This document shows, piece after piece, positions 29,179 to 52,030 of a stretch of DNA of 64,000 bases. The position numbers and the translations under genes were made by a program. Numbering within the stretch: position 1 is the stretch's first letter; each line of letters begins with the position of its first letter. The stretch comes from an uncultured Acidobacteriota bacterium (lineage in GTDB: Bacteria; Acidobacteriota; Vicinamibacteria; Fen-336): positions 2,656,001 through 2,720,000 of the forward strand of contig OY970399.1 in assembly GCA_963720545.1 (NCBI GenBank), read 5' to 3'. The notes under the pieces are model-generated. The model was not told the origin of the DNA and searched no databases. It saw only the letters and a program-made list of their open reading frames with translations.

Positions 29179-29254
29179 TTCTGACCAATACTCAGGCCAT
29201 GAGTACGACGTCCTCATCGGGTGAGTATGGGCTCGCAACTCGACCGTGCTGGGG

Positions 29255-29278: not shown

Positions 29279-29403
29279 ACCTCCGGAGGAAGTAACAGCA
29301 GATCGGTAGACGGCAACAACGGACGACGACGCAAGCGCCCGGGGAAACCGAGGAAGGGAAATCGACGGATTGGACGGGGACGGGAGGCCAATCCGTCGAT
29401 GAG

Positions 29404-30914
29404 CTAGCGAAACAAACGCGACGCGAACTCGATGAAGTTGCGGCGCCAGACTGGCCAGGCGTGGGCGCCGGCGGTTTCGTGGTACTCGTGGCGGAGCTTG
29501 CGGTCGTCGAGCCAGGCGTGCAGGCGGCGGTTCATGCCGATGAGGTGGTCGTCGGTGCCGCAGGCGAGGTAGAGGAGGCGGCGCTCTGGCGCCGGTCGTC
29601 GGCGGCGCCGGCAGCTGCAGGTCGGCGGTGAAATCGTCGTCGAGCCCGCCGGTGCTGAAGGCGCCGACCCAGGCGAAGAGCTCGGGGTGACGAAGACCGG
29701 CGAGCAGCGATTCGAAACCGCCCATCGAGAGGCCGGCGACGGCGCGATCCGAGGCGCTGGTCGAGGTTCTATAGGCAGACTCGACCGCCGGCACTACTTC
29801 GTCGATCAGGGTCCGCAGGAAGAGCGAATAGCTGCGGCGGCGCAGCGCGAGTGTCGCGCAGCCCTGAGTCCCTCACGATGTCCATCGTGCCGTAGCCGAG
29901 CGGCATCACCACGATCATCGGCACCGCGCGTTTGCTGGCGATGAGGTTGTCGAGGATGACGTGCGCACGGCCCACCGCCGACCAGCCGCTCGCGTCGTCG
30001 CTGAACCCGTGGAGCAGGTACAGCACCGGCAAACGCCCGTTGTCCTGCGCTCCGTACCCGGGCGGCGTGTACACGAAGTACTCGCGGCTGTCGCCGGCGG
30101 CCGCCGAGCGGTACGTGTGGCGGTGCAGCGTGCCGTGGGGGACGTCCTGGACCTCCCAGTCCCGCGGCGGGGTGCCAGGCACCAGCACGGCGCTGCTCTG
30201 CGACAGCAGGTTCGGGTAGTACTCGGGGTTGCCCGGATCGGTGAGCGCCACGCCGTCAACGAGGAAGTGGTAGCCGTAGAGGTCTGGTTCGAGCGGGCCG
30301 GTCGTGACGCTCCACAGCGCACCGGCTTTCGTCATGGGTACCGCCTTGCCCTCGAGCTCGAGCTCGACTACCTGGGCGCTTGGCGCCGCCAGGCGAAACG
30401 TGACCCGGCCGTCGGGCAAGGGCTCGGGCGACGATGGTGCCGCGGCCAGTGCGGCCGTCTCGGGTCGTGACGCGGGATGCCACATGAGATGCGTGATCCG
30501 CCAGCGATTCTCCGCGCGCCTGAGACCCATGACGTAGACGTCGTCGAGACGCCGCGGCGTTCCGCCCTGCCGCGGCACGAGACGGCCGCCGTTGCGGCCG
30601 CGAATCAGCGCCGTGCTGCCGCTCACGCAGATCTCGTCGAGCCGCGGCTCGATCGCGGGTGCGAAGTCGTGGAAGAGCCCCTCGTAGCGCGGCCGGATCG
30701 CGTCGATGCCGACGACCGGCGCCTCGTTGGGCGGCAGCAGCACGGCATCGGGGGCGTAACTCGCAAGCACCGCCGCCAGATCGCGGCGGTTGTCGGCGGC
30801 GACGATGCCCTCGGCCACCGCCCGCGCTGCAGCCACCGCGGGGTCCGAGGGCGGCGCGCACGCCGAGCCCTCGGCCGCGGCAGCGAGCGCTACCGCGGCC
30901 AGGACCCCAAGCAT
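29404..30914 (-). CDS. Exported fusion: SnoaL/DUF4440 domain + CBM48-like Ig domain + esterase (alpha/beta hydrolase); frameshifted near 3' end
   Basis: Signal peptide, YAPDAVLLPPNEAPVVG, DGRVTFRLAAPSA, VPHGTLH...VYTPPGY...PVLYLLHG, AGLSMGG, GAHAW. ATG overlaps the upstream TGA. Confidence 0.8.
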
Positions 30915-33538
30915 CAGAAAGCGACGCCGGTCTTGATGTAGAAGCCGATGCGGCCTTCGCTCTTGGCGACCGACAGGGTCACCGAGTTGCGGCGGTTGGG
31001 GGAGGCGAACCACAGGCCGCCGCCGACGCCGTTGTGCCACTTGTTCGAGTCTTCGCCCTTCAGGTAGACGCGGCCGACGTCGTAGAGGCCGAGGATGCCG
31101 ATCTCGCCGGGAACGAAGATGAACGCGTTGCCGAGAGCCACGCGCAGCTCCGCGTTGCCGTAGACGACGCCGTCGCCGGCATAGCGCTGCGGGCGCAGGC
31201 CGCGGATCACGCCCGGATCGTCGCCGAGGCCGCCGATCGAGCTGACCGAACGGCCGCCGAGGAACGCCGACTCGAAGTAGGGGAAGTCGCCGAACACCTT
31301 CTTGCCGCCGCCGCGCAGCATGAGGATCACCTTGCCGGGGACCGACGGGCTCAGGTACGCGGCGAGCTCGCCGTGCAGCTCGCCGAACGAGTCCTCGATG
31401 TCGAGCGCCTCCGGGTAAGCGTGGCCGCCCGCCCAGAACTTGATGCCGCGGCTGGGCCACGCGGGCTTGTCGGTGGTGTCGATGCGCGCCTCGAAGCCGG
31501 CGCCGATCTGCGCGACGCTGTCAACAGTCAGTGCCGGCGGTATGAACCCGTTGGTTCCCGGGTTGCTGAAGGCCGGGTCGAACACCGGGTTGTCCTTCGG
31601 CTCGGTGTTGGTCCACTTGAAGACCGGCTCGAGCGACAGCTCGAGCTTGCCGATCGGGAAGACGACGCGCGGCGCCACCAGGAACTGATCGTTCTCGATC
31701 TTGCTGTTCTTGTCGGGCTCGATCTTGGGCGTCTCGTTGCCGAAGCCGTAGAAACGCAGGATGTCGTAGCCGGAGCCGAGTGCCGTGAGGCCGAGGCGCA
31801 CGTTCGAGTTCTCGAGGCGCTTGTCGAAGTCGTAGACGCCGCGGAACGCCTTCACCGTGCTCGAGAAGCTGAGGCTGAAGTGGTGGCGGGCCGAGAATGG
31901 GTCCTTGCGGAAGGCGTAACTCGTCGAGGTCAGCGAGGCCGTCAGGATGGCGCCGTAGTCGGTGCCGCCGGTGAGGCGCAGTTGCTTGATGGTGCGCCGG
32001 CCCCAGTCGCGCGCCGGGATCCAGGCGCCGCTCTTGTTGGCCGGCGGCGGGACGTAGTCGCTCTGGTCCCACTTCGTGCCCTTGCCTGTGAGCACGCGGT
32101 CTTCGCTGCCCGAGGCGTACGCCTTGGTGCGGCCGCCGCCGGTGTCGTCCACCACGTCAGCGCCGTCACCGCCCACCGCGCGCACCAGGATGCCGCCGGT
32201 GTCGCCCTTGGTGACCACCTTGTCGTTGCCGCCGAACAGCAGCAGCCGGATCTCGTCGGTCTCGTTCTTGTGGAACGTGCGCTTGAAGTACGGATCCTGG
32301 CCTTCCGCGCCCAGTGTCACGGTGACGTCGCCCGAAGGCGCGCGCTCGACGTTCGCCACCTCCGCTGCGTCGGTCGCGTAGATGTCCACCTTCTGCGAGA
32401 GGAACTTGTAGAACTTCATCGCCTGGTGGTCCACTTCGTCGCGGCGCTGGCGCAGCCCCTTGATGGTGAAGGCGCCGTTTTTCACGAAATATTCGGGCGG
32501 CATGCGGCGCGCCGCCTCCTCGATCACCGCATCGGTGATCGAGGCCTTCACCTTCGCCGCCTCTTCGACGAACGCCTCGCGCTCGAGGTCGGCGAGCAGG
32601 CGGCGATCCACGTCCCAGCCGTCGAAGGTGAGCCCGTCCATGCTCGAGAAGTCGTCGCTGAAGTTGACGAGCAGCGGCAGCCCCTGGCGGAAGATGCCGA
32701 TGACGAAGCCGTCGAACTTCACGTAGGCCTGGTCGCGGTCTTCAGGGATGGGGATGAAACGGTCGTTGCCCGCGATCTTGGCCCAACGCCACTGGTTGCG
32801 GTGGCGGTCCCAGTCGCCGATCATCATGTCCACGAGCCGCGCGCGCAGGTAGGCGCGCGAATCGACGCGCACCGCCGGGCTCTCGCGCAGCCGCTGCCAG
32901 AGCTCCTCGCCGTCGATATTTTCCTCGGCCGCGACGATGCCCTTGCTGCCGCCGAACTCCTCGATGTCGCCCAGCTGGCCGGCGAATTCCTTCTGGTACT
33001 CGCCGAGCGCCTCGTCGTCGGGCACGATCACGAGGTGCGGATCGTTGTGCACCACGTCCACCGCCTTCAGCAGCGGCGCCACCATGGTGTGGCCGGCGGG
33101 ATGCCCGGACGCCATCTGGTCGGTGACGAACTTGCGGGCAAAGGTTTCGCGCAACTCAACCGGTAGCAGGCCGCTCGGGTCCTTGAGAATCGGGCGGAAA
33201 GTGTAGAGCCGGCCGTCGCCGCCCTTGAACGCGAGGCCGCGGCTCTGGCCGTGGCCGACGATGCGCGTCGGCTTGAGGCCGCCGGCGTAAGTCTGCAGGT
33301 TCAGGACGTCGGCCTTGAAAGGCGTCAGCCACAAGTCGCGGTAGTTGCTGCCGAAGAGGAAGCGGTAGAGGCCGCCCTTCTTGTAGCGAGCACCAGCCAC
33401 CACCGTGCGCGTCTCGCCGCCGGGCGCTGGCGATGCCGCCGCTTCGGGTGCCTGCGGCGCCGCAAAGGCTGCGGTGCCGGCAGGGATGAACGTGACGAAC
33501 GTAAGGACGGCAAGGACGGCCGGAATGATGCGCTTCAT
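30914..33538 (-). CDS. Outer-membrane protein: N-terminal atypical-kinase-like domain + C-terminal Omp85/BamA-type beta-barrel
   Basis: Signal peptide. Kinase-like motifs VGHGQSRG, IGDWDRHRNQW and PIPEDRDQA. C-terminal barrel signature IRGLRPQRYAGD...NAELR...LYDVGRV...GVGGG, ending GFYIKTGVAF. Confidence 0.75.
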   Translation of the reverse strand: MKRIIPAVLAVLTFVTFIPAGTAAFAAPQAPEAAASPAPGGETRTVVAGARYKKGGLYRFLFGSNYRDLWLTPFKADVLNLQTYAGGLKPTRIVGHGQSRGLAFKGGDGRLYTFRPILKDPSGLLPVELRETFARKFVTDQMASGHPAGHTMVAPLLKAVDVVHNDPHLVIVPDDEALGEYQKEFAGQLGDIEEFGGSKGIVAAEENIDGEELWQRLRESPAVRVDSRAYLRARLVDMMIGDWDRHRNQWRWAKIAGNDRFIPIPEDRDQAYVKFDGFVIGIFRQGLPLLVNFSDDFSSMDGLTFDGWDVDRRLLADLEREAFVEEAAKVKASITDAVIEEAARRMPPEYFVKNGAFTIKGLRQRRDEVDHQAMKFYKFLSQKVDIYATDAAEVANVERAPSGDVTVTLGAEGQDPYFKRTFHKNETDEIRLLLFGGNDKVVTKGDTGGILVRAVGGDGADVVDDTGGGRTKAYASGSEDRVLTGKGTKWDQSDYVPPPANKSGAWIPARDWGRRTIKQLRLTGGTDYGAILTASLTSTSYAFRKDPFSARHHFSLSFSSTVKAFRGVYDFDKRLENSNVRLGLTALGSGYDILRFYGFGNETPKIEPDKNSKIENDQFLVAPRVVFPIGKLELSLEPVFKWTNTEPKDNPVFDPAFSNPGTNGFIPPALTVDSVAQIGAGFEARIDTTDKPAWPSRGIKFWAGGHAYPEALDIEDSFGELHGELAAYLSPSVPGKVILMLRGGGKKVFGDFPYFESAFLGGRSVSSIGGLGDDPGVIRGLRPQRYAGDGVVYGNAELRVALGNAFIFVPGEIGILGLYDVGRVYLKGEDSNKWHNGVGGGLWFASPNRRNSVTLSVAKSEGRIGFYIKTGVAF

Positions 33539-33554
33539 AGTGGGCAACCTCTAA

Positions 33555-34727
33555 TCAGTCGATTCGTTCGGCATAGCGTTCGACAGCCTGGCCATCGGCC
33601 TCGACGACGACAGCAGCCAGGCGTCCCCGCCCGTTGCGGGCCATGTCGAGGCGAACATACCCCGGTTCGCCCGAAGCGAAGTGCGTGGCCGGCAGCCGGG
33701 TGGGAATTCGTGTGTGGTGGAAGGCGCCGGCGCCGCTCACGATCAGCCACCTTGCGAGGCCGCCGCCCTCGAGCAGCTGGATGCCGTGCTCGTGGCCGGC
33801 GGCCCAGGCGAACGGCGGATGCTCGCGCAGCACCGGGTTCAGGACCGACAGCATGTGCTCGTAGACGGCTGCCGGCGCGTCCTGCGGATACCAGCCGAGG
33901 GAGCGGCCCGCCGGGATGAGGGAGCCGACGACCGGCAGCGGCAGCCACAGCCAGCCCTTCCAGGCGCGCAGGGGAAAGAGATGATCGCGCATGGTGAAGT
34001 GGCCGCCGTGGCCGCCGCCCGAAACCGGCGGATGATGCGACACCAGGATCACCGGTCGGCGATCCGCGGGAGCGAGTGCCACGCGCAGCGCCGCCTGCAC
34101 CTCGCTGTCATTTGCCGCCGCGCAGGACGATCCGGGATTGCGCGGCTTCTCGCCCTGCTCGATCCACCACTGGGTGTCCAGGGCGACAATGCGCGCGCCA
34201 GGCATGAGATCGTCCTCGACCGTGGGGCCCGGGCACGCGTCTCGCGGCCGGAATCGCACCTGCGGGCGGCCGATCTCCTCGACGTAGTCGGCCTGACGCT
34301 TGACCGTCTGCCAGCCCGGCTCGCGGTCCTCGCCCCAGTCATGGTTCCCCGGGATGAACATGCTGCGGGCGCCCGAAGCCTTGAGCGGCGCCAACTGCGC
34401 GGTGAGGCGGGCGACGGCTTCGGCCCGCGTTGCATCGCCTTCCGGGGGCAGGCCCGCATCGTAGACGTTGTCGCCCAGCACCAGCACCGCGGTTGAAGCA
34501 GGGTTGGCGCGGGCCTCGCGGGCGATCGCGGCGAAGATCGGCGCGACGTTGCGCACCGGCTCGCCGGCATCGCCGACGAAGAGCAGCGTGAACAGGCGCT
34601 CGCCCGCGCCGAGCTGCGGCACGGCGCGGGCAGCGGCCAGCTCGGCGTCGTTGCGGGAATTCTCGGAGCACGCACAGCACGCGGCCAGCGCGAAAGCCAT
34701 GGCAAAGGCGCGAAGCGACGCACGCAC
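33555..34727 (-). CDS. Calcineurin-like metallophosphoesterase (lipoprotein)
   Basis: LAAC lipobox, VGDAG, LGDNVY, PGNHDW, SHHP, AGHEH. GTG start inferred. Confidence 0.85.
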   Translation of the reverse strand: MRASLRAFAMAFALAACCACSENSRNDAELAAARAVPQLGAGERLFTLLFVGDAGEPVRNVAPIFAAIAREARANPASTAVLVLGDNVYDAGLPPEGDATRAEAVARLTAQLAPLKASGARSMFIPGNHDWGEDREPGWQTVKRQADYVEEIGRPQVRFRPRDACPGPTVEDDLMPGARIVALDTQWWIEQGEKPRNPGSSCAAANDSEVQAALRVALAPADRRPVILVSHHPPVSGGGHGGHFTMRDHLFPLRAWKGWLWLPLPVVGSLIPAGRSLGWYPQDAPAAVYEHMLSVLNPVLREHPPFAWAAGHEHGIQLLEGGGLARWLIVSGAGAFHHTRIPTRLPATHFASGEPGYVRLDMARNGRGRLAAVVVEADGQAVERYAERID

Positions 34728-34732
34728 GACCG

Positions 34733-36046
34733 CTAGGCCGCGGCCTTGCTCGTCTCCGCTGCGTTCAGCTTCAGCACCCTGAACGCTAGAAACAGCCACA
34801 GCGCCACGAGCGCGAGGTTCACCACCGCGAAACCGCGGATGCCGAGCCCGAGCTGTGTCGTGCCGACGAACACCAGCACCGCCGCCAACACGTCGCCGGA
34901 ACGCACGAAGAAGGTGTCGATCGCCTGCTTGGCCTTGTACTTTTCCTCGCGGCTCGTCGGCAGCCACAGCAACTGCTTGGCGGTGTTCATCAAGGAATAA
35001 TCGGTGCCGTTCTCGGCGATCTTCGCGAGGCGCACCAGCATCAGGCCGGCGCCCGCCGCCATGATCGAATAGCTGCCGAGCGCCACGATCGGCAGCGCCA
35101 GCAGCACGCCGCGCAGGCCCATGGCCTTGACGAGGCGCGAGGCGACGAACGCCTGCAGCAGTGCCGCGAGCACCGAAGTCCAGAACAGGTAGTCGCCGTA
35201 GAAGCCGCCGATGAAGGCCTTCTTGTCGGCAAGGCTCGCCGCTGCCTCGGTAACCTTGGTGCTCAGCAGGAACTCTCCGGCGGTGTTCACCAGGTTCGTC
35301 ATGATGAGCAGCACGCCTATCGCCAGCAGGTAGGAGCTCTTGAAGACGAGGGCGAACCCGTCGCCCTTCGCGAGCACCGGCTCGGCGGCCGGGGTGCGCT
35401 GCCGCGCCTTCGCCAGGTGGTTCATGAGGTAGTAGAGGCCGAGCGAGACCAGCAGGATCGCGCCGCTCAGCCGCAGCATGAAGTGCAGCGGCTGGCCCAT
35501 CTTGAACAGCTGGCCGGCGATCTTCGCGCCGATCGGGCTGCCGAGCGTGGCGCCGATGGCGATGACGGGGAACAGCCGCTCGCCCATTTCCTTCGTATAG
35601 ATGTCGTTCGCGTAGCTCCAGAACTGCGCGATGATCGAGAGGTTGAAGATCCCGACCCAGATATAGAACACGACGCCGACGAAGCGCACGTCGAGCCTGA
35701 TCGCCACCTCGAACAGGATGATGCAGGCGACGAAGAACAGGTTGAGGGCGACGATGAGGCTGGAGCGCTTCAGGCGCGCGGCAAGCCAGCTGTAGATGGG
35801 GATGAAGGCGATTAGGGCGAGCGCCTGTCCGGCAGAGGCGTAGGTCTTCACCGCGGCGCCGCCGCCGGTGAGGATGAGCGGCTCGCGCACGGTCTTGATG
35901 ATGTAGTAGCCGAGCAGGATGAGGAAGACGTTCGCGAACATCAGCAGCACGCCGACGCCCTCGCCCCCGCGGACGTCGCTGAAGAGGCGCAGGAAACGGT
36001 CGAGGGGGGTGAGCGGGGCCGAGGAGCTTTGATCCTGGTTCGCCAT
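34733..36046 (-). CDS. Npt1/Npt2 (TLC/NTT) family nucleotide exchange transporter
   Basis: About 12 hydrophobic segments, YYIIKTVREPLIL, FYIWVGIFNL...QFWSYANDIY...RLFP, DYSL, KYKAKQAIDTFFVRSGD. Confidence 0.88.
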   Translation of the reverse strand: MANQDQSSSAPLTPLDRFLRLFSDVRGGEGVGVLLMFANVFLILLGYYIIKTVREPLILTGGGAAVKTYASAGQALALIAFIPIYSWLAARLKRSSLIVALNLFFVACIILFEVAIRLDVRFVGVVFYIWVGIFNLSIIAQFWSYANDIYTKEMGERLFPVIAIGATLGSPIGAKIAGQLFKMGQPLHFMLRLSGAILLVSLGLYYLMNHLAKARQRTPAAEPVLAKGDGFALVFKSSYLLAIGVLLIMTNLVNTAGEFLLSTKVTEAAASLADKKAFIGGFYGDYLFWTSVLAALLQAFVASRLVKAMGLRGVLLALPIVALGSYSIMAAGAGLMLVRLAKIAENGTDYSLMNTAKQLLWLPTSREEKYKAKQAIDTFFVRSGDVLAAVLVFVGTTQLGLGIRGFAVVNLALVALWLFLAFRVLKLNAAETSKAAA

Positions 36047-36161
36047 GCGGGTTTTGGTGGCCGGACGATATCACACCCGTCCGGCGCCGCCCGAGACTGC
36101 CTGCAGGTTGGGGGCTACAATCGGCGCCGATATCCCCCCTTGAAAGGGAAGGTCGGCACCC

Positions 36162-37256
36162 ATGAAGGCTTTTCGGGCGCACCTCTTTGTACCCCTTCTT
36201 TTCGTTGCCACCGGCGTCGCTTGTGGCGCCTGTGCCCACCGGGAGCTGAAGCCCGGCGAGGCCTTGACCGAGGAGGCGCGCCTCGAGGCCATCCGGCGGG
36301 CGCACGTCTGGTCGCCTGTGGTCGTCCGCAACGTCAACTTCAGGGTCGGGCCAAGCGACAAGAACAGGCCTGCGCCTGGCCAGTGGATCACCTGCGATTA
36401 CAAGCCCACCGAATCCGGCGGCAAGTCGCCCAAGTTCACCTGCGTCGGCAGCCGCGGCCAGGAGTACAAGGTCAAGTACGGCGACGACAACGCCGAGGTG
36501 ATCGGTGAGGTGCTCGCCTCACGGCTCTTGTGGGGGCTCGGCTTCGGCGCCGACCGCATGTATCCCGTGCGGGTGCGCTGCCGCGGGTGTTCCGCGGACC
36601 CGGCGGAGCACAAGGAACGCGCCGCCGGCACGGCGGTCTTCGACCCGGCGGCGATCGAGTGGCGACTGCCGGGGCGGACGCTCGAGACGCGGCCCGATTC
36701 CGGGTGGAAATGGGACGAGCTCGACGAGATCGGCCCGGGCGCGCCGCCCGGCGAGCGCGCGCACCGCGAAGGCCTCAAGCTGCTGGCGGCGTTCATCCAG
36801 CACACCGACAGCAAGTCCGACAACCAGCGCCTCAGTTGTCCGCCCGGCGCCTCTGTCGGGCGCACCGGCTGCCGCGCGCCTTTGATGATGATCCACGACC
36901 TCGGCCTGACGTTCGGCCGCAGCTCGCTGCTGAACAAGAACGAAAACAGCGTCAGGCTTGCCAGGTGGGCGACGCTGCCGGTGTGGAAGAACCCGGCGAC
37001 CTGCGAGGCCCAGCTCGGCGGATCGCTCACCGGGACCCTGAGCAACCCCGTGATCCGCGAGGAAGGCCGCGCGTTCCTGGCCGGCCTGCTGGCACAGCTG
37101 AGCGACGCGCAGCTTCGCGACCTGTTCGAAATCTCCGGCGTGAAGCATCGACCGGCCGACAGCAAGGATGAGACGGCACCCGCCTCGGTCGAACAGTGGG
37201 TGGCCGCGTTCAAGGACAAGCGGGCCCAGGTGGTGGACCACCGCTGCCCGAACTAG
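36162..37256 (+). CDS. Exported (lipo)protein with atypical protein-kinase-like fold
   Basis: Signal ending VACGAC. GGKSPKF, YKVKY, GEVLASRLLWGLGF, catalytic-loop-like HTDSKSDN, DFG-like HDLG. Confidence 0.65.
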   Translation: MKAFRAHLFVPLLFVATGVACGACAHRELKPGEALTEEARLEAIRRAHVWSPVVVRNVNFRVGPSDKNRPAPGQWITCDYKPTESGGKSPKFTCVGSRGQEYKVKYGDDNAEVIGEVLASRLLWGLGFGADRMYPVRVRCRGCSADPAEHKERAAGTAVFDPAAIEWRLPGRTLETRPDSGWKWDELDEIGPGAPPGERAHREGLKLLAAFIQHTDSKSDNQRLSCPPGASVGRTGCRAPLMMIHDLGLTFGRSSLLNKNENSVRLARWATLPVWKNPATCEAQLGGSLTGTLSNPVIREEGRAFLAGLLAQLSDAQLRDLFEISGVKHRPADSKDETAPASVEQWVAAFKDKRAQVVDHRCPN

Positions 37257-38384
37257 GACGGCGTCGGCGTCGGTGAGGGCTTCGGCGTCGGCTTCGCCGC
37301 CGGCGGCTTTGCAGTCGATTTCGGTGAGGCCGTCGGAGTCGGCTTCGGGGTCGGCTTCGGCGGTCGGCGGCCCTGGTCCCTCGGGCGTCGAGCGGCCCGG
37401 CGTCCCGACCTTGGGCACCGCCACCTCGACCGGCTTCGCTTCCGGCGACGCGGGCTTGGCCTCGGCGGGCGCGCCCGGCCGATGGATCTCGCCCGAGTCG
37501 ATCGTCTGGCCGGCGCGGTTGATCGTCTGGTAGTAGAGGTCGTTGCCGGCGATTTCCACGAGCATGAAGTGGTAGTCGGCGTCGTACTCCTTCGCCGTGA
37601 TGCCGGAGGCGCGGTTGCCGCTGCGCAGCGAGCCGCCGGCGCCCGAGACGAAGTAAGTGATGTCGCCCTTCTGCGGCTTGGTGCGCTCGTAGAAATGGTC
37701 GTGGCCTGAGAACACCACGCTGACGCTGTTCTTGACGAACAGCGGCTCGAGCACCGCGCGCGACTCGAGCGAGGAGCCGTGCAGCGCGCCCGACGAGTAG
37801 AGCGGATGATGGAAGTAGGCGACCTTCCATTCCGAGTCCGACTCGGCGAGCGTCTTGTCCACCCAGGTGAGCTGCTCCTTGTCGAGGTAGTTGCTGTCTA
37901 GCGCGTAGAAGCGCACGCTGCCCTCGCCCTTCCCTGGCCCGCTCGGTCCGCGGAACGTGTAAAAGCGCTGGCCGTCCATGTTGAACGGCTTGTAGAAGCG
38001 CTGGTTCGGGTTGTCGTGGTTGCCGAGGCTCGCGTAGAACTTCACGCCCTTGTCGAGGAGAGCCTTGTACGGGTCCTCGAACTTGAGCTTCATGTCGGCG
38101 GGACTGTCGGCGCCGTAGATGTTGTCGCCCAGCATGATGACGAACTCAAACGGGAACACCTCGTGGAAGGCGGCCATCTGCGCGCCCACCTCGTACTGCT
38201 CGCGGCGGCCGCGGCCGCTGTCGCCGATCACGCCGAAGCGCACCGAGCCGTCCTTGCGCGGCAGCTTCAGCGCGGTCTTGGCGCTGTCGTTCGACGCCTG
38301 CGAGACCTCGCGCGGCGCCTGCGAGGCAGGGCACTGGCCGAGGCCGAGCGCCAGCAGCAGGGTTAGGAACGCGGCGCCTCTCAA
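37253..38384 (-). CDS. Exported metallophosphoesterase (purple-acid-phosphatase-like) with Pro/Lys/Thr-rich tail; frameshift near 37370
   Basis: IGDSG, LGDNIY, LGNHD, FHHP, SGHDHFYER. The tail PKPTPKPTPTASPK...PTPTPS ends at TAG 37253-37255 in the alternative frame. Confidence 0.85.
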
Positions 38385-38388
38385 GATC

Positions 38389-39036
38389 TCACTTCGCCGG
38401 CAGCGGGGGAGTGCCGGCCGGCAGGAAGTCGACGATGAGGCTCGTGACCGAATCGAACAGGATCAGGTCGCGCCCGACGAAGCGGTACTGCAGCGGCGCC
38501 GGCAGCACCGGCAGCGTGGCGAGGACGCTTGCCGGCACGGTCGAGAGCGCTGCGCCCGATGGATACTCCGTATTGACGCGTGGCTTCACCGGCACCGACT
38601 CCCCGTCTTTCTGCGGGTTGCCTTCGACCACGGCGCTGCGGGCCGCACCGGTGTCCGGGCCCTGCAGCTCCTTCGCCAGCAGCCGCCTGAACACCGGCTG
38701 CACGGCTGGCGTGAAGATGTCGCCCTGCTTTGCCTGCTGGCGGGCTGCGACGATTGCGGCGGCGAGCGACGTCGTCTTCGCGTCGGCGCCCGCCGCGCTG
38801 TCGGCCCTGGGCGTGCCGAGCTTCGCAGCCTCGCGCGCATGGAGCGCAGCGTACTGCGCGACCGCGTCGCGAAACGCCTTCAGCGCCGCCTGTTCGGCCG
38901 GGCTCATCGGCACCTGCGGGCCCGCCTCGGCCTTTTTCACCTTGTTCGCCACCTTGGCGGCGGTGTCGGGCGGCGGCTGTTGCGCGAGACTACCGGCGAG
39001 AACGGCGAGGCCTAGACAACCTGCGAAGAACCCCAT
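38389..39036 (-). CDS. Exported hypothetical protein
   Basis: Signal peptide. Structured-looking C-terminus VNTEYP...TVPASVLATLPVLPAPLQYRFVGRDLILFD...LIVDFLP. Tightly packed in the operon. Confidence 0.7.
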   Translation of the reverse strand: MGFFAGCLGLAVLAGSLAQQPPPDTAAKVANKVKKAEAGPQVPMSPAEQAALKAFRDAVAQYAALHAREAAKLGTPRADSAAGADAKTTSLAAAIVAARQQAKQGDIFTPAVQPVFRRLLAKELQGPDTGAARSAVVEGNPQKDGESVPVKPRVNTEYPSGAALSTVPASVLATLPVLPAPLQYRFVGRDLILFDSVTSLIVDFLPAGTPPLPAK

Positions 39037-39049
39037 GGCGCTGCTCCAG

Positions 39050-39961
39050 TCATTTGCCGCTTGCCGGCTTTGCTTTCACCTTACGCCGCGGCTTGCCCTT
39101 TTTGCCAGCGACCGCCACCCCGTGCATGGCGCCGAGCGCCGCCGCCCAGTCCTCCTCGAAAATCGCCGCCATCTTCGCCACCACCTTGCGGTCCTTGACG
39201 ATGACGCCGACCTCGCGACGGTGGTCGAGCTCCAGCTTGCGCAGGCCCTGGCTGCCCATGAACGCCTGCTTGCCGTCGCGGATCACGGCGCGCAGGTGCA
39301 GCCGCACGCCGGGAATCTTGAGTGCCGTGAGTCCGCCGCCCGCCTTGCCCAGGATGCGCACGCTGACGCCGGCAGCGATGCGCTCCTTGATGATGCGGAT
39401 CATGCGCGTGTCGGTGAGCTTGGGGACGTGATAGATGAGCAGCTCCTTGCGCGCGCCCTTCAGGTACTCGGCCAGCCGCTCGCGCGAGTTGACCGGGCTC
39501 ACGAGGAACGACTTGGAGCCGGCCGCGTAGTCCTGGCGCAGCGAATCGGCCTCGAACAGCTTGAGCGCCTCTGCCACCAGCTCGCGCTTCTTGGAAACGA
39601 CCGCGAAGCTGCGGCTCTTCAGGTCGAGCGCCGTGTAGTTGAAGGCCAGGATGTACACGCTCTTGCGGTCCACCACCATCACCTTGCTGTGGTAGCGGAC
39701 CAGGTCGGTGTCGGTGCGGCGCACGCCGGCGCCGGTCTTGAGCAGCGCCTGCTCGAGGCGGCGCAGCTTCTTCTCGCCGCCGCGGTTGGTGTGCGCGATC
39801 AGGGTGCGCACCGCGACACCGCGGCCGGCGGCAACGGCGAGCAACTCGGCGATGTCGCGGCGGTCGAGGCGGAAGATGCCGACGTCGAGACTGGTCTTCG
39901 CCTTGCGGATCGCGCTCAGGATTGGCTCGATGCCGTCGTCGGGCTGGATGATGAGCTTCAT
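39050..39961 (-). CDS. Phospholipase D-superfamily protein (two PLD domains)
   Basis: YHSKVMVVD (HKD) and variant LHLRAVIRD...GSQ. Basic C-terminal tail. ATG overlaps the upstream TGA. Confidence 0.8.
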   Translation of the reverse strand: MKLIIQPDDGIEPILSAIRKAKTSLDVGIFRLDRRDIAELLAVAAGRGVAVRTLIAHTNRGGEKKLRRLEQALLKTGAGVRRTDTDLVRYHSKVMVVDRKSVYILAFNYTALDLKSRSFAVVSKKRELVAEALKLFEADSLRQDYAAGSKSFLVSPVNSRERLAEYLKGARKELLIYHVPKLTDTRMIRIIKERIAAGVSVRILGKAGGGLTALKIPGVRLHLRAVIRDGKQAFMGSQGLRKLELDHRREVGVIVKDRKVVAKMAAIFEEDWAAALGAMHGVAVAGKKGKPRRKVKAKPASGK

Positions 39962-40671
39962 TTGCCTGGCTTCTTTTCCGCCCAGGCCACTTCCACGGCT
40001 TCGCCCTGGCGCAGCGCCACAATCATCTCGGAGAGCTGGTCCGTGCCCTTGCCCTGCGGCACTTCGGCGGAGTACGTCATCTCCTTTTCGGTGGAGGCGC
40101 GCAACTCGAACTTCACGCCGTGCTTCTTCAGCAGCGACTCGAGCGCCGGCTTGAGCGCCGCAGGGTCGCGGGCTGCGATCTTCAGGTCGAAGGAAGCCGT
40201 CGGCCACGGCGCACGCCACTCGAGGATGCGCAGCACGCCGATGATGAAGAGGGTGCCGGCCGTGGCGAGATAGATGAGCCCGACGCCGGAGGCGAGGCCG
40301 ACGGCGAGGCAGGCGAGCAGCACGCTGGCGTCCTTCGGGTCGTCGATCTTGGCGCGGTAACGCACCAGCCCGGCGACGCCGGCGATCGCGAAGGCGCGCG
40401 CCAGGCTGGCGCCGACGATCAGCATCACCAGCGAGCCGACGATCGCCAGCATGATCTGCGTCTGGATGACGGTCGCGCCGCGCGGCGGACCGCCGGCCGG
40501 CCGAGGCCGGAAGGCGAGCACCGCCCCCAGCGCTCCCGCCACCAGCAGGCACAGGAGCGAGTGGCCGAGGTCGGCAAACGTGAAATCGGCGATCTGGTTG
40601 ATCGCCGTCAGCGAGCGCGGCGTCTCCTCGCCCGCGGGCGCAACCGCCAGCAGCACGAGCAAAGAATCCAT
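39958..40671 (-). CDS. DUF4956 / MgtC-like membrane protein
   Basis: Transmembrane segments with ARAFAIAGVAGLVRYRAKIDDPKDASVLLACLAVGLASGVG, and a C-terminal ACT-like region. Confidence 0.78.
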   Translation of the reverse strand: MDSLLVLLAVAPAGEETPRSLTAINQIADFTFADLGHSLLCLLVAGALGAVLAFRPRPAGGPPRGATVIQTQIMLAIVGSLVMLIVGASLARAFAIAGVAGLVRYRAKIDDPKDASVLLACLAVGLASGVGLIYLATAGTLFIIGVLRILEWRAPWPTASFDLKIAARDPAALKPALESLLKKHGVKFELRASTEKEMTYSAEVPQGKGTDQLSEMIVALRQGEAVEVAWAEKKPGK

Positions 40672-40749
40672 GTTCTAGAGGCCCTCCGCGGCCAGTCCGG
40701 CAGGCCGAGAATCTATCACTCAGTCTGCCGCCTACCGAGGGGGGCCGCC

Positions 40750-41760
40750 TCAGCCGGCTTTCGACATGCCGGCTATGGATACCGCGCCGCTCGCGCGCTC
40801 CACCCCGGCGCGCATCTTGGAGATGCGGATGACGTCGGTCGCGATCACCTGCAGGTAGTCGCTCGCCATCTCGAAATTGTCCTCGAACACGTCGAGCAAC
40901 GTCTCCGCCACGGTGTGCAGCGCCGTCACCTCGGTGCGCGCCGTGGCGTCGTAGAAGCGCGGCGTCTCGGAGATGCTCTCGATCGAGCCGAGCGGGCCGC
41001 CGGGGCCGAGGGTGAAGTCGATCGCATCCTCGTCGGAGCGGCAGCGCACAGCGCCGTCGATGATGACGAAGATGCCGCCCGAGGCGTCGCCCTTCTTCCA
41101 GATCTCGGTGCCGGCATCGAAGCGCACCTCGTTCATGCCGCGCGACAGCTCGGCAAGCGCGTTGATGCTGCTGCGCTTGAAGATCGGCGCCTTGCGCAGG
41201 AACGCGATGCGCTCGACGAAGTCCATCTCCTTGCGCGGCGCCGGCATGTCGAAGCTGCTGAGGTCGGTGAACACCCAGGGGTTCTCGATGAGCAGCGCGA
41301 GCAGTCGCTTCGAGCTGCCCTTGATCATCCCGTAGGTGAGGTTGAAACGGTCCTCGAGCACCTCCATGAGCGCCTCGGCGTCGATGTCGAGGCAGTGCAC
41401 GTCGGTGGCGGCGATCGCCTCGAGTCCCTGCGGGTCCTTGGCCATGTATTGCAGCCAGCCGACGGCGTCGCCAGGCCCAAGACTGGCGAGCTGCAGGTCC
41501 TCGGTGCGGATCTCGACCTGGCCTTCGATGATGAGGTGGATGGTGTCCACCATCTCGCCCATGTGCCGCATGACGGCGCCCTTGGGGAAGTAGCGCTCGC
41601 TGCACAGCTCGGCGATCACCGCGAGGTCGGTGGAGCGCGCACCGCCGGTGGCGTCGAACATCCGCAGGTACAGCACCCGCTCCAGGAGCGACGTGGAACG
41701 CACGCCGTCGACGGTTTCCCTGCGGCGAGAGCGCAGCCTCGGCTTCGACTTACCCGGCAC
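40750..41760 (-). CDS. Tandem cyclic-nucleotide-binding-domain protein
   Basis: Two repeats: LERVLYLRMF...FPKG...LIIEGQVEI and VERIAFLRKAPIF...FDAG...VIIDGAV. GTG start with AAAGGA RBS, overlapping the upstream stop. Confidence 0.82.
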   Translation of the reverse strand: MPGKSKPRLRSRRRETVDGVRSTSLLERVLYLRMFDATGGARSTDLAVIAELCSERYFPKGAVMRHMGEMVDTIHLIIEGQVEIRTEDLQLASLGPGDAVGWLQYMAKDPQGLEAIAATDVHCLDIDAEALMEVLEDRFNLTYGMIKGSSKRLLALLIENPWVFTDLSSFDMPAPRKEMDFVERIAFLRKAPIFKRSSINALAELSRGMNEVRFDAGTEIWKKGDASGGIFVIIDGAVRCRSDEDAIDFTLGPGGPLGSIESISETPRFYDATARTEVTALHTVAETLLDVFEDNFEMASDYLQVIATDVIRISKMRAGVERASGAVSIAGMSKAG

Positions 41761-44503
41761 CGGCGGTCCTTTCGGCACCGGGGATGCTGCCGGCGGCCGC
41801 ATCCAGCGCGCGCAGCGCCCGCTCGAACACCTGGCGGACGAAGAAACCGGTCTTGTGCCGGTCGAAGGCGCGCAGGCGTTCGGCGAACTGTACGAGGCCC
41901 AGCTCGCCGATATGGCCGGCGGCCAGCGAGCGGATGGTTTCGCCGGGCTGCTCCAGCAGCTCGCCGAGCAGCTGCTCGTAAGTCGGCGGTGTCCGCGTCA
42001 CCGGCCCCTGCACCGCCAGCCGCTCCGCATCCGGCACGTCGTCGATGAGGCCGATGACCAGGTCGCGCAGCGGTGGCTGCAGCACGTTCGCGGTCAGCTC
42101 GCGCGAGGTGGCGCGGATCTTGGCGCTGGTGCTGCCGAGGCCTCGGTGGATGGGCTTGAAGTTCTCGCGCGTGAAGCGCAGCGACAGCAGGCGGAACAGG
42201 CGCTCGATGGCGTGCGTCTCCTTGTCGCGCAGCAGCGCCACCAGCAGCTCGTGGCCGGGAGTGAGGCGCGCCGGCACTTCGGCGGCGCCGTTCTCGAGGA
42301 TCGCGCGCCATTCGATGAGGCGGTAGGTGGCGGCGATGGTGCGCTCGATGGCCTGGTCGAGCACCGAGTCGTCGAAGTTGATGCCGGGGTTCTCGGTGGC
42401 GATACGGCCGAGGCCGCGGATGATCTTGAAGCGCACCAGGCCGTCGTTCTCGTCGAGCAGCCGCTCCTGCAGCACCTGCAGGGCCGCCTCCGGCTCGAAC
42501 AGCACCAGCGAACGCGGCACGTGGCGGCGGATCTCGTGCGGCAGGTGCTCGTCCTTCAGCGACTCGGCCAGGAAATGCAGCGCGCGCTCGCCCTGCGCCA
42601 CCAGCGCCGCGCGCGCCGCCGGCCGCACCTCGTGGCTCACCAGGAACGACATCAGCGGCGGCAGGAAGGCGTCGTCGCGCACCGCGCCCATGGCGCGCGC
42701 CACCTCGATCTGCACCTCTTCCTCGGAGGAGTCTCCGAGGAGCGTCAACGCCGGGACGAAATCGGGCGAGGGCTGGCGCGTGATGGCGCGCGCCAGCACC
42801 AGCCGGGTGCGCGCCGAGGCGGCGCAGGCGATGCCTTCGATCGCCTCGCGGTCCTCGTCGGTGCCGAGGCCGCGCGCCACCATCACCACCAGCGCCGTGG
42901 CCCGCACCAGCGGATCGACGTCGCCCGTGGAGGCGCGCAGCGAGGCTTCGTCGGGCGCCACCGCGTTGCGGGCGCGCAGCGCGGCGGCGCGCACCTCCGG
43001 GTCGGGGTGGCCGATGAGGCGGTCGGCGACCGGATAAAAGTCGTCGCGCTTCGACAGTTCGAAGAGCTCCAGGGTGCGCAGCACGATCGCGGACGAAGGA
43101 TGGAAGAGGAGCAGCGCCGGCACCAGCCGCACCCGGCCCTCTTCCGCCAGCAGGTCGAGGGCAGCGAGCACCTCGCTGTCCTCGGCGCTGTTGAGCGAGG
43201 AGAAGAGCGACTCCAGCGAGCCCAGGTCGAGCTCCGGCATGTCCACCGAGCTGTGCATCGAACCCTCGCGCAGCGCGTCGCGGAACAAGTTGAGGTAGTG
43301 CTTCTTGATGTCGGCGGCGAACGCGATCCAGACGATGCACAAGCCGCCGGCCGCCGAGGCCAGCACGTAGTCGCCGCGCCGCAGGCCGATGTCGCTGAGG
43401 ATCGCGAGCGAGGCGATCGCCTGGCCGGCGCGCTGCGTGACGCCGTCGATGAACGGCTTGACCCGCGAGCGCAGCGCGTCGGGGATGGGGACGAACAGCA
43501 GCTCCATCGCGGTCTTGTTGAGCGAGAAGCGGAAGGCGCCGTCGGCGCCCTTCATGATCAGCGCCGCCGCCAGGCCACCGCCGAACGCGACCCCGGCGGA
43601 CCCGAGCGCCAGCAGGCTCGGCAGCACCCACAGCGCGCGGTGCAACCCGAGCAGGCGCATGAGGATGCCGGCCAGCAGGAACTGGGTGAGGAGCCCCGCG
43701 ATGTTGAGCCCCATATAAAAGGTGGCGAAGAACTCGGCGAGGTTCTCCTTCGGGATGGCGCGCGCCACCTCGCTCTTGAAGACGTAGTCGGCGACCGTGA
43801 TGGCGACCGTCGAAACCAGCACCAGCACCGTAAGGTTCTTGAGGTAGGCGTTGCCCTGGATGAGGCGCAGCGGCTCGCGCAGAGCGGCCAGGCCGCGCCC
43901 GCCGGGAGCGTCGATGGTGGTGCGCTGCAGGTAGAGGCCCGGGCCGAGCGCCGTCAGCACCATCAACAGCGCGGAAGTCGGCAAGAGCGTGTCGGCGGGG
44001 AACGAGCCGGCGACGATGCGGGCAATGCCCGAGCCGGCGACGGCACCCATGACGCTGCCGGTCGCGACCACGCGGAACACGCGCTTCGCCTGCGTCACGG
44101 TGAAGCGGTCGGACATGATCACCCAGAACTCGACCGCGGCGAGCGTGCCGAAGACGCCGGTCCAGATGTAGAGGCCGTAGACGCGGAAGTGGCCCTGGTA
44201 GCCGACGCCGGCGAGATAGAACGCCAGGGTGACGGCGGCGGCGAACAGCAGCAGGAAGCTGAGGCTGAACTTCACCGCGATCCGGCCGAGGCGCTTCAGC
44301 GGCGAGTCGGAGATGAGCATCGCGATGCCGGCGATCGCGAGGTACATGAACGGTAGCTGCGAAGCCGGCAGCCGCGACAGGAACAATGCGTCGCGCGCGG
44401 TCTCGAGGATCGTGTGGCTTGCGAGGATGCCGAACAGGCCGAAAAAGGACAAAAGCGCGGCGCTGCGCTCGTCGGCACGGATGTCGCCCAGAAAACGCGC
44501 CAT
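41750..44503 (-). CDS. Npt/TLC-family nucleotide transporter fused to HEAT repeats
   Basis: N-terminal MFS-like domain (ILETARDALFL, EFWVIMSDRF...AKRVF, FSLNKTAMELLFVPI...VKPFID), followed by HEAT-like repeats (HPDPEVRAAALRA, DVDPLVRATAL). Confidence 0.85.
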   Translation of the reverse strand: MARFLGDIRADERSAALLSFFGLFGILASHTILETARDALFLSRLPASQLPFMYLAIAGIAMLISDSPLKRLGRIAVKFSLSFLLLFAAAVTLAFYLAGVGYQGHFRVYGLYIWTGVFGTLAAVEFWVIMSDRFTVTQAKRVFRVVATGSVMGAVAGSGIARIVAGSFPADTLLPTSALLMVLTALGPGLYLQRTTIDAPGGRGLAALREPLRLIQGNAYLKNLTVLVLVSTVAITVADYVFKSEVARAIPKENLAEFFATFYMGLNIAGLLTQFLLAGILMRLLGLHRALWVLPSLLALGSAGVAFGGGLAAALIMKGADGAFRFSLNKTAMELLFVPIPDALRSRVKPFIDGVTQRAGQAIASLAILSDIGLRRGDYVLASAAGGLCIVWIAFAADIKKHYLNLFRDALREGSMHSSVDMPELDLGSLESLFSSLNSAEDSEVLAALDLLAEEGRVRLVPALLLFHPSSAIVLRTLELFELSKRDDFYPVADRLIGHPDPEVRAAALRARNAVAPDEASLRASTGDVDPLVRATALVVMVARGLGTDEDREAIEGIACAASARTRLVLARAITRQPSPDFVPALTLLGDSSEEEVQIEVARAMGAVRDDAFLPPLMSFLVSHEVRPAARAALVAQGERALHFLAESLKDEHLPHEIRRHVPRSLVLFEPEAALQVLQERLLDENDGLVRFKIIRGLGRIATENPGINFDDSVLDQAIERTIAATYRLIEWRAILENGAAEVPARLTPGHELLVALLRDKETHAIERLFRLLSLRFTRENFKPIHRGLGSTSAKIRATSRELTANVLQPPLRDLVIGLIDDVPDAERLAVQGPVTRTPPTYEQLLGELLEQPGETIRSLAAGHIGELGLVQFAERLRAFDRHKTGFFVRQVFERALRALDAAAGSIPGAERTAGAG

Positions 44504-44521
44504 GGAAAGGTGATCTTCCCA

Positions 44522-44543
44522 CGGAGTTAACGCCGAATTAACC
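44522..44543. promoter_or_regulatory. Candidate pho box (TTAAC direct repeat, 11-bp period) in the divergent NTT-HEAT/porin promoter
   Basis: CGGAGTTAACGCCGAATTAACC, with TTAAC at 44527 and 44538. Confidence 0.6.
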
Positions 44544-44611
44544 GGGCCGCCGCCGCGCCGTTACTTTGGGCCGATAGCTTGCCGCTCGAGAAAATCCCAA
44601 GGAGGGAATGA

Positions 44612-46069: not shown

Positions 46070-46077
46070 GACGCCGT

Positions 46078-46112
46078 CGGAGTTAACACGGATTTAACAG
46101 CACGCATTAACC
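46078..46112. promoter_or_regulatory. Candidate pho box upstream of pstS
   Basis: CGGAGTTAACACGGATTTAAC...ATTAACC, with TTAAC at 46083, 46094 and 46107. The first 10 nt are identical to the 44522 site. Confidence 0.65.
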
Positions 46113-46168
46113 GGCCCGTTCCTTCGGGCCGGTACCTTTTGATCAAAGACATGGAAAGAGGCAAGCAC

Positions 46169-47132: not shown

Positions 47133-47213
47133 GCGCCGAGACCGAAATAGCAACCAAGACCGTGGCCAGCACTGGCGACGACGCCGCGAACCTTTGCAAG
47201 ATCCGCCGCGCGC

Positions 47214-51103: not shown

Positions 51104-51127
51104 CGGCGTTTTTTGGTGAGATGTCGG

Positions 51128-51997
<870 letters not shown>

Positions 51998-52030
51998 TAT
52001 CACAATAGCGCGCCAGGGGAAGAAGAGAAG

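Follow-up and report, generated by a model that had tools for sequence, protein, structure and literature searches.

Gene content and organisation of the locus

The window analysed here is a stretch of 64,000 nucleotides from an uncultured Acidobacteriota bacterium, and the block that we describe occupies 13,590 bp of it (Table 1). A first-pass annotation had proposed a multi-gene block of about 13.6 kb with two Npt/TLC-type transporters, a tandem cNMP-binding protein, DUF4956, a PLD-fold protein, two exported metallophosphoesterases and an exported protein of no known family, and we find all of these among ten genes, all of them real. They do not form one operon. The gene g7 lies on the strand opposite to its neighbours, converging on g6, where the two stop codons overlap, and diverging from g8 over 115 bp, so that the block must comprise at least three transcription units. 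A 78-bp gap separates g2 from g3, and g3 overlaps the start of g4 (ATGA). The divergent promoter that the block was thought to have in common with the porin-pst genes would lie in a 104-bp spacer (44504-44607), but only g1-g2, or perhaps g1-g6, can use it. The genes ppx and ppk1 are indeed near, about 14 kb away.

Both the porin gene and the tail of g6 are frameshifted in the present assembly. In g6 the shift lies near 37361, and reading through it gives 376 aa ending at 37253. One contig without one base (depth under 5) supports an assembly error, and the reads of another run did not show it.

Table 1. Features of the block and its surroundings, with positions in the window.
Feature	Position	Strand	Basis
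g1, NTT(TLC-like)-HEAT fusion, 917 aa	41750..44503	-	Pfam HEAT_2 E 6e-19, TLC 19.8 bits
g2, tandem cyclic-nucleotide-binding protein	40750..41775 (start approximate)	-	PF00027 x2, E 2e-25; overlaps g1 end
g3, DUF4956/MgtC-like inner-membrane protein, 237 aa	39958..40671	-	PF16316 29.8 bits, MgtC E 1e-3
g4, predicted cytoplasmic two-domain PLD-superfamily enzyme (HxK...HxR), 303 aa	39050..39961	-	PLDc_2 x2
g5, predicted exported protein, 215 aa, no known family	38389..39036	-	no Pfam
g6, predicted exported calcineurin-like phosphoesterase, Pro/Thr/Lys-rich tail	37253..38384	-	PF00149 E 3e-15
g7, predicted exported lipoprotein-like atypical kinase, 364 aa, without Pfam family	36162..37256	+	AlphaFold model
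g8, single-domain NTT/TLC carrier, 437 aa	34733..36046	-	PF03219 59.8 bits; PDB 9j3n E 2e-12
g9, lipoprotein-like metallophosphoesterase, N-terminal part of split 'Metallo' Omp85	33555..34727	-	PF00149 E 1e-7
g10, signal peptide, kinase-like domain (DxDRHxxQ...DxD) and C-terminal Omp85 barrel, 874 aa	30914..33538	-	NF047779 E 4e-20
Pho-box-like array, four 11-bp repeats and -10-like hexamer facing porin	44526..44580	+	matrix and relatives
porin O/P (frameshifted), pstS, pstC, pstA, pstB, phoU, phoB-like regulator	44608..53445	+	gene calls
ppx and ppk1 (context)	58882..62630	+	gene calls

Predicted exported kinases and a probable split 'Metallo' Omp85

Two exported proteins had been noted for kinase motifs, and the motifs are present in both; the fold is supported for g7. 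A model of g7 from an alignment-based AlphaFold run (pLDDT 95.8) matches CtkA (Z 12.6), PI4KII (11.2), Fam20 (11.1) and CotH (10.3) in the PDB, with rmsd 3.6-5.0 A over 222-240 residues and 9-15% identity. The catalytic set of K105, E112, D216 and D246 is conserved in 121-127 of 127 aligned rows, and the protein has conserved cysteines in pairs together with a lipobox-like signal. From this model we conclude that g7 has a true atypical kinase fold of the PI3/4K-Fam20-CotH-HipA kind with a Lys/Glu/Asp/Asp set. A PDB sequence search with the g7 alignment gave no match, and CotH (PF08757) was absent from both g7 and g10 at E 0.05 in a Pfam search. The g7 family is large, with 2,208 clusters at 50% identity, and is not covered by any Pfam model.

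For g10 the kinase assignment is a putative one made from motifs only, with D247, R248, Q252, D270 and D272 invariant in 101 rows. Its N-terminal domain aligns weakly to g7 (hhalign E 0.43), and the nearest named Atlas match is CotH (0.77). The putative C-terminal Omp85 barrel had been overlooked earlier; it is recognised by NCBIfam, yet at 72.6 bits against a cut-off of 200, and the Pfam Omp85 family gives no match. The preceding protein g9 matches a fused protein, P0271 (E 2e-34), in which PPK1, a phosphoesterase, a g10-type domain and a barrel form a single chain. Both g9 and g10 are homologous to P0271 along its length, as is the PPK1 of the window to its own part. The split between the two genes is bridged by an independent contig and is real, and we read g9 and g10 as a split 'Metallo' Omp85 with the PF00149 domain and the barrel in two genes, not one chain. 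In the kinase tree g10 and 20 kinases that have an NTT partner group together in a clade with support. A comparison of the g10 clades gave no clear pattern of donor-specific residues separating NTT-linked from DUF-linked kinases.

Putative nucleotide carriers

The carrier g8 passes the gathering score of Pfam TLC (21 bits) and g1 is just under it; the cut-off of the canonical AAA family TIGR00769 (387.2) is missed by both (60.3 and 18.4 bits). Compared with 9j3n, a solved Chlamydia carrier on whose structure we found no paper in the open-access literature, g8 keeps one Glu and three basic positions (R to K once, K to R twice), whereas another Glu is replaced by Gly and two Lys by Asn/Asp. We take these charged positions to be the substrate residues of ATP/ADP carriers. 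Orthologues of g1 occur in 32 of the 40 genomes of the same family, with a cNMP gene after them; 32 genomes have both g1 and g10, six have neither and two have g10 only.

The combination of an NTT domain fused to HEAT repeats with a cyclic-nucleotide-binding gene directly downstream, as in g1-g2, has already been published (Major, Embley and Williams 2017, PMC5381601). That paper describes one NTT relative that transports NAD and another that did not move any nucleotide, and it leaves open what NTTs do in free-living bacteria.

DUF4956, the PLD enzyme and their companions

The assignment of g3 to DUF4956 is based on alignment and hydropathy in addition to its Pfam score, which is under the gathering score of 30.6 bits; aligned relatives reach 38.8-45.5. 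We considered MgtC, the nearest named relative of DUF4956, as a phosphate carrier itself and rejected this, since by the account in the relevant part of PMC6658541 it works by binding PhoR and not as a carrier.

The enzyme g4 is colinear with the catalytic core of the window's own PPK1 (hhalign 92%, E 6e-7, 259 columns), against 44% for one Cls-like control. In the PDB it matches generic PLDs and nucleases best, with PPK1 only at E 1e-4. It consists of PLD domains only and has neither the N-terminal and head domains of PPK1 nor, by hydropathy, a membrane anchor. H91, K93, H222, R248 and E250 are invariant in 58 rows, and the second motif is variable, with R in 50 and Q in 8 of these rows and mostly K in a second subfamily. 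Its HxR form was therefore rejected as a marker of PPK1 origin. The first-strand Arg is also aligned in the Cls-like control, and we found no papers on the PPK1 residues in the open-access literature. Automatic annotation names g4 a cardiolipin synthase. No VTC candidate was found in the 95% complete genome G000. The protein g5 is present at 17 of 39 PLD loci, and in relatives at two loci it is fused to a g6-type phosphoesterase.

Pho-box-like site

The Pho-box-like array starts 22 bp from the start codon of g1 and is oriented toward the porin-pst genes. Relatives have the same layout in front of their porin genes at 18 loci, and with a matrix built from 16 of these the site in the window is the third-best genome-wide. 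A matrix scan found no Pho box at the g7/g8 and g2/g3 spacers, and PhoB probably touches g1-g2 only.

Two modules in other genomes

The ten genes are not kept as one set, and we saw the full block in no other locus. The block brings together two modules that usually stand apart in other genomes. One, module B, consists of an NTT carrier, an exported kinase and an Omp85 barrel and is found at 18 of 40 fetched carrier loci; the carrier adjoins g10 in nine and a second exported kinase family, of about 550 aa and homologous to g7 (hhalign 97.8%), in eleven. At the remaining 22 carrier loci neither kinase type lies in the neighbourhood. The other, module A, consists of DUF4956, a two-domain PLD, an exported kinase and a phosphoesterase. 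The proposed tie between carriers and exported kinases is supported for g8-type carriers but does not extend to the PLD/DUF4956/g5/g6/g7 module, where an NTT carrier was found at 0 of 39 loci and, within 10 kb, at 0 of 67.

In a survey of 200 genomes with 90 g10 loci, an NTT gene was found within 4 kb in 14 and DUF4956 in 22, with no locus having both. The 80 metagenome g10 loci gave 12, 19 and again none, with ppk1 as a neighbour in 18. This exclusivity is weaker than its nominal P values of 0.014 and 0.029 suggest, because the kinase tree forces no more than three switches; two lineages account for 19 of the genomes in which DUF4956 is adjacent and the carrier absent. A second either/or pattern appears among 146 DUF4956 loci, which have PLD within 4.5 kb in 46 cases, VTC in 40 and never both, and which have no g8-type NTT within 8 kb. 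One family has g10 and DUF4956 while the g8-type carrier is missing, and in family f4, also with g10 and DUF4956, PLD or VTC is found in 0 of 27. The PLD-DUF4956 pair is also seen with true CotH and a phosphate porin, and PPK2 lies between or beside module genes at three loci and at five of 20 g10 loci.

Proposed mechanism and alternatives

We suggest that the block could be an envelope phosphorylation apparatus with two supply lines able to replace each other, one for ATP (NTT) and one linked to polyphosphate (DUF4956), an explanation that we hold to be quite possible while stopping short of calling it probable. What the data show directly is which genes are present, how g7 folds in its model, which neighbours recur and that a Pho-box-like site exists. 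The exported atypical kinases, the lipoprotein g7 and g10 with an Omp85 barrel of its own as a tether, would phosphorylate an envelope substrate, and the exported phosphoesterases g6 and g9 would take the phosphoryl mark off. Such kinases would require a phosphoryl donor beyond the inner membrane. In line B the carrier g8 would export a nucleoside triphosphate, probably ATP against spent ADP, and the NTT-HEAT/cNMP pair g1-g2 might be a regulated relative of this line. In line A a cytoplasmic phosphotransferase (the PLD g4 here; VTC or PPK1 elsewhere in the same slot) would act at DUF4956, through which polyphosphate or another activated phosphate would be passed outward. Export and location, catalytic activity, each transport step, donor and substrate are the parts of this scheme that we infer. 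Several observations weigh against it: the few tree switches, the kinase-less carrier loci, the distance of g8 below TIGR00769 and its missing Glu and two Lys, the NTT relatives that move NAD or no nucleotide, the weak alignment of g10 to g7, the PDB ranking and variable motif of g4, the missing PLD or VTC in f4, the finding that MgtC is not a carrier and the lack of clear donor-specific residues.

A second explanation is phosphate scavenging, in which nucleotides or polyP would enter through the barrel and porin and be trimmed by the phosphoesterases, the carriers would import nucleotides, and the kinase-fold proteins would bind or run in reverse. The Pho-box-like site beside g1 speaks for this, as do the repetition of the divergent layout in G016, the divergence of g10 from the porin in G003, PhoD and PAP2 in five and four of the 40 carrier loci, and pst/phoU or ppx beside module genes at four loci. 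Characterised NTTs, moreover, serve mostly for uptake in the part of PMC5381601 that treats them. The Pho linkage recurs in just two of the 18 Pho-box loci, whereas 16 have unrelated divergent genes; the two internal spacers are without a box, complete kinase catalytic sets are conserved, and the neighbouring slot holds polyP-making enzymes (VTC, PPK1), not hydrolases alone. We regard scavenging as unlikely. We think much the same, if a shade less firmly, of lipid or glycolipid remodelling, with a cardiolipin-synthase-like g4, DUF4956 as an MgtC-like adaptor and no channel, kinases whose targets would be glycans or the head groups of lipids, and a product moved by TamB or an ABC flippase. PI4KII, MavQ and Fam20 are among the top fold matches of g7, a fused ABC half-transporter occurs at 10 of 39 PLD loci, TamB adjoins g10 at five loci, and PAP2 and patatin-Omp85 are among the neighbours. 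Generic PLDs head the PDB list of g4, its automatic name is cardiolipin synthase, and stress-type genes, presumably CsbD-, BON- and GlsB-like from their motifs, surround many module A loci. Yet the g4 profile is nearer to the PPK1 core than to the Cls-like control, g4 has no anchor, the strict g4-or-VTC pattern would be left unexplained, and an extracytoplasmic lipid kinase would need a donor all the same.

It is more improbable still that the block is a loose phosphate-metabolism island of unrelated modules gathered near pst and ppk, with carriers unconnected to the kinases. Such an island would fit a ten-gene block that we saw once, modules A and B lying within about 10 kb in just one other genome of the 200 (G132), and second copies of g7 and g10 that stand alone elsewhere in the genome. 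It would also fit the surroundings of the g1 orthologues, which are mostly unrelated: of 20 fetched loci, 17 lack pst and phosphate-porin genes, and 3 of 38 orthologues lie near g10. Against it, NTT, kinase and barrel are repeatedly adjacent, with two different kinase families, more than one gene order and fusions, including one NTT-Omp85 reading frame, and the family as a whole shows g1 and g10 together.

Returning to the two supply lines, the locus hints that ATP or polyphosphate may, in some bacteria, be carried over the inner membrane to power phosphorylation in a compartment regarded as having no fuel supply. The route of ATP over this membrane into the periplasm is stated to be unresolved in the relevant passage of PMC7432876, and the locus offers named proteins both for this question and for the role of NTTs in free-living bacteria. 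The either/or patterns add the claim that DUF4956 with a polyphosphate-type enzyme may substitute for the ATP carrier of exported kinases, including CotH. It is a rather doubtful generalisation that many diderms cycle phosphorylation extracytoplasmically, with NTTs exporting ATP and DUF4956 as a VTC-like conduit through which polyP, made by VTC, by PPK1 or by a PPK1-core-like PLD standing alone, reaches kinases of the CotH type and their relatives, both lines being present at this locus. If true, it would give functions to free-living NTTs, DUF4956 and 'Metallo' Omp85s, and add a new minimal polyphosphate enzyme.

Comparison with known systems

We found no description of the whole system in the open-access literature, a search that leaves most subscription journals outside; the individual parts belong to known families. 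The pair g1-g2 shares its architecture with the published NTT-HEAT and cNBD proteins, which are uncharacterised, and single-domain NTTs like g8 are reported from free-living bacteria including Acidobacteria; unlike the window, the main text, in the portions used here, names no kinase, Omp85 or Pho neighbours (PMC5381601). The 'Metallo' Omp85 of Heinz and Lithgow (2014, PMC4104836) likewise joins a PF00149 domain to an Omp85 barrel, but in one chain where the window has g9 and g10. The parts of that paper drawn on treat the N-terminus as a metalloprotease and leave the kinase-like middle domain and carriers unmentioned. With the accessory genes cotH, VTC polyphosphate polymerase and DUF4956 of Gram-positive pel loci, in the section of Whitfield et al. 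(2020, PMC7112168) that covers them, the window has in common DUF4956, an exported atypical kinase and a cytoplasmic phosphotransferase; it has PLD in place of VTC and a non-CotH kinase in place of CotH, and the pel genes are missing.

With polyphosphate kinase 1, g4 aligns over both catalytic PLD domains and differs in the missing N-terminal and head domains. The yeast VTC complex synthesises polyP and transfers it through a membrane, and the VTC-like role of DUF4956 is proposed by analogy with it. The secreted and lumenal atypical kinases CtkA, Fam20B/C, CotH, PI4KII and HipA share their fold and catalytic residues with g7, which differs from them in its low identity and its predicted place in a bacterial envelope. 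Eukaryotic lumenal kinases are supplied by ATP carriers of the ER and Golgi, and the arrangement suggested here would resemble that supply in that an exchanger would provide for a kinase located across a membrane.

Organisation of the block

The genome to which the window belongs is a single contig of 4.09 Mb (GC 68.7%, completeness 95%) with frameshifts scattered across it; judged from what its nearest homologues are called, it is a Vicinamibacteria-like acidobacterium. The gene set reported in the first-pass annotation is there, but g7 lies on the opposite strand and g10 carries a predicted Omp85 barrel at its C-terminal end. Export of g5, g6, g7, g9 and g10 is probable, as read from their N-terminal sequences by eye and from hydropathy. 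The split between g9 and g10 is real, because an independent contig spans the junction free of gaps. Consecutive parts of a single natural protein, P0271, match g9 and g10, and a complete PPK1 sits in front (E 2e-34, 9e-55, 3e-25); the P0271 record may have arisen by reading through neighbouring genes.

Single-base indels break several window genes (a peptidase/esterase-like gene, a TonB receptor, a sulfatase-like gene, an esterase and the porin), and resemble the pattern of an uncorrected long-read assembly. The lower-GC start of the window (58-65%) holds fragmented ORFs that look restriction-modification-like by their motifs.

Features of the window and related copies elsewhere in the same genome (C1, contig)
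Feature	Position	Strand
g1 NTT-HEAT, then g2 tandem cNMP	from 44503 downward	minus
g3 DUF4956, g4 PLD, g5 exported unknown, g6 phosphoesterase	after 78-bp gap 3' of g2	minus
g7 atypical kinase	stop overlaps g6 stop	plus
g8 NTT, g9 phosphoesterase, g10 kinase-like with predicted Omp85 barrel	beyond 115-bp divergent spacer from g7	minus
Repeat array of the porin	44526	
Weaker Pho-box-like site 5' of pstS	46082	plus
Weaker Pho-box-like site 5' of ppx	58825	plus
SixA-like histidine-phosphatase gene	55451-55939	minus
Genes broken by indels	19136-31460 and 44608-44840	
Lower-GC region	1-14000	
Second g10 copy	C1:1199199-1201728	
Second g7 copy	C1:1733130-1734026	

The kinases

A kinase fold for g7, a probably exported protein, is supported by its predicted model (pLDDT 95.8, from a 127-row alignment) and its residues. 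Against 48,161 chains the best structural matches were CtkA (Z 12.6), PI4KII (11.2), Fam20 (11.1) and CotH (10.3); all 50 listed matches are kinase or kinase-complex entries, and Foldseek was concordant. K105 and E112 are each kept in 121 of the 127 rows, D216 in 126 and D246 in all 127. No Pfam model covers the family, which counts 2,208 representatives at E 0.001. Another kinase family, with members some 550 aa long, is homologous to g7 and was not found in the window's own genome. g10 is a candidate kinase: its catalytic-loop and metal-binding motifs do not vary across 101 rows, while its profile did not match that of g7 significantly. The genome has a further copy of g10 (63%, with a frameshift close to the end) and one of g7 (35%), and neither has another gene of the modules closer than about 9 kb.

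Carrier loci

Among 40 of the best-scoring loci of g8 orthologues, 9 have g10 next to the carrier and 11 have the 550-aa kinase there, usually accompanied by a free-standing Omp85 barrel; 18 have one or the other. Other genes in these loci include PPK2 (3), PPX (2), PhoD (5) and PAP2 (4). Two loci (L097, L112) hold g1-g2-g8-g10 in a single run and one (L116) a fused NTT-Omp85 frame. By coordinates, g10 lies within 4 kb of the carrier in 14 of 84 g8-type loci; either kinase lies near it in 36 of 84, a figure drawn from 88 of the 150 kinase rows listed, four of which were put in manually for lying near carriers. The NTT-barrel-kinase set repeatedly has a membrane Ser/Thr kinase and a shorter NTT-HEAT gene as neighbours (L116, L122, L127, L110).

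Several of the invariant residues, basic as well as acidic, are retained in the carrier g8. It nevertheless lacks one Glu and two Lys of the solved Chlamydia carrier, so its cargo may not be ATP.

PLD-DUF4956 loci

The g4-family loci taken from GTDB, 39 in all and many on short contigs, contain g6 (29), a g7-like kinase (28), DUF4956 (19), g5 (17) and g10 (4). The expected linkage of carriers to kinases recurs (18 of 40 carrier loci); an NTT beside PLD is found in none of the 39. The core of DUF4956, PLD, exported kinase and phosphoesterase occurs in Vicinamibacteria, Blastocatellia and Terriglobia, with classes taken from record titles.

We fetched 40 DUF4956 loci of other families, chosen among the 150 matches listed. 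The 20 strong matches have PLD in 13 and a g7-like kinase in 12; the 20 weaker ones have a second subfamily of the same PLD in 9, VTC in 3, CotH in 15 and porin O/P in 12. Among 146 listed loci of the 200-genome class sample, PLD lies within 4.5 kb of DUF4956 in 46, VTC in 40 and both in none; a g8-type NTT lies within 8 kb in none. This census excluded the window's genome, an unpublished genome (G128) and two duplicate rows, and 24 further DUF4956 rows fell outside the listed matches. We conclude from these counts that PLD occupies the slot held by the polyphosphate polymerase in a published gene set.

g4 is a candidate phosphotransferase in the polyP slot. Over 259 columns it matches the catalytic core of the PPK1 encoded in the window (92%), and it scores lower against one Cls-like control (44%). 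Generic PLDs rank above PPK1 in the PDB, and g4 is not itself a PPK1.

Some g4 orthologues (L040:3970-5379, L035, L033) carry Ala/Lys/Glu-repeat tails of 150-190 residues. In 7 of 20 loci (L224:3062-4398, L225, L227, L228, L230, L234, L235), DUF4956-PLD-porin-CotH has a pair of thymidylate-kinase-like P-loop genes next to it; the DUF4956 subfamily concerned bears a STAS domain at its N-terminus. A SixA-like histidine-phosphatase gene is grouped with CHAD, DUF4956, CotH and ppx in L223; a similar gene lies in the window between the pst operon and ppx-ppk1.

Alternative partners of g10

The genome sample contains 90 g10 loci. A g8-type NTT lies within 4 kb in 14 of them, DUF4956 is present in 22, and no locus has both. 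The best 80 of 535 metagenome loci gave 12, 19 and 0, with neither partner in 49, often on short contigs; 18 of the 80 contain ppk1 and 20 a g9-type gene. In one genome family (f4), g10 and DUF4956 occur together in the same 14 of 27 genomes, while the g8-type carrier (0/27; 0/23 at E 1e-8), PLD and VTC (0/27) were not found. A tree of 56 g10 domains requires 3 partner changes and places the window's g10 with 20 NTT-linked rows (support 99/98). The pattern thus follows clades and reflects few switches. Unusually, both modules are present in the window; one other genome, G132, has them about 10 kb apart. In some g10-DUF4956 operons (L152-L158, L302), further genes encode an SdiA-regulated/phytase-like propeller and a phosphoesterase, and TamB is often among them.

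Possible link to the Pho regulon

Of 30 porin loci examined in relatives, 18 carry four repeats of 11 bp and a -10-like hexamer, all in constant spacing. The array is a putative PhoB box, by the known consensus and its position. With a matrix built from 16 of these 18 loci, the window's site ranks third genome-wide, with one repeat unit degenerate, and two inner block spacers contain no similar site. A divergent promoter shared with porin-pst had been suggested; the array does start 22 bp from g1, but it is oriented to the porin, and a module gene is divergent from the repeat-bearing porin in only 2 of 18 loci (g1 in G016, g10 in G003; unrelated in the other 16). Among 20 fetched g1 loci, one is divergent from pst and two are near a phosphate-type porin. 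The Pho link is recurrent, not general.

The sites 5' of ppx and pstS score more weakly (11.6, >99.99th percentile). A second porin O/P type without a Pho box lies 3' of a cNMP-containing gene and 5' of an exported protein (L189, L190, L192, L197-L200); in L142 and L143 the cNMP-containing gene preceding it is an NTT-cNMP fusion.

Discussion

The reading we tentatively favour, at somewhat less than even chance, is that the kinases and phosphoesterases would form an envelope phosphorylation cycle, whose phosphoryl donor would be brought by the NTT or by DUF4956 together with a polyP-type enzyme. On this reading, kinases of the NTT clade would draw on ATP, and those of the DUF clade on polyP or a carrier-borne donor. 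Only the anatomy, the g7 fold and the co-location are directly established for this cycle. The original interpretation of the block is supported in part: the adjacency of carrier, kinase and barrel recurs, but the PLD/DUF4956 module stands apart from the NTT. The same genes might instead serve lipid or glycan remodelling, which we consider unlikely, or scavenging, which seems slightly less likely; that they are a loose island is improbable.

Searches of open-access literature turned up no account of the joined system. New here are the substitution of PLD for VTC, the alternation of NTT and DUF4956, the putative Pho box, and one locus with both proposed donor lines. Several parts of the system are in print as uncharacterised architectures, namely NTT-HEAT with cNBD (PMC5381601) and the 'Metallo' Omp85 (PMC4104836). 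DUF4956 may act as an adaptor, in the manner of MgtC (PMC6658541). The cotH-VTC-DUF4956 set, likewise uncharacterised (PMC7112168), has a polyphosphate polymerase in the slot that PLD takes here.
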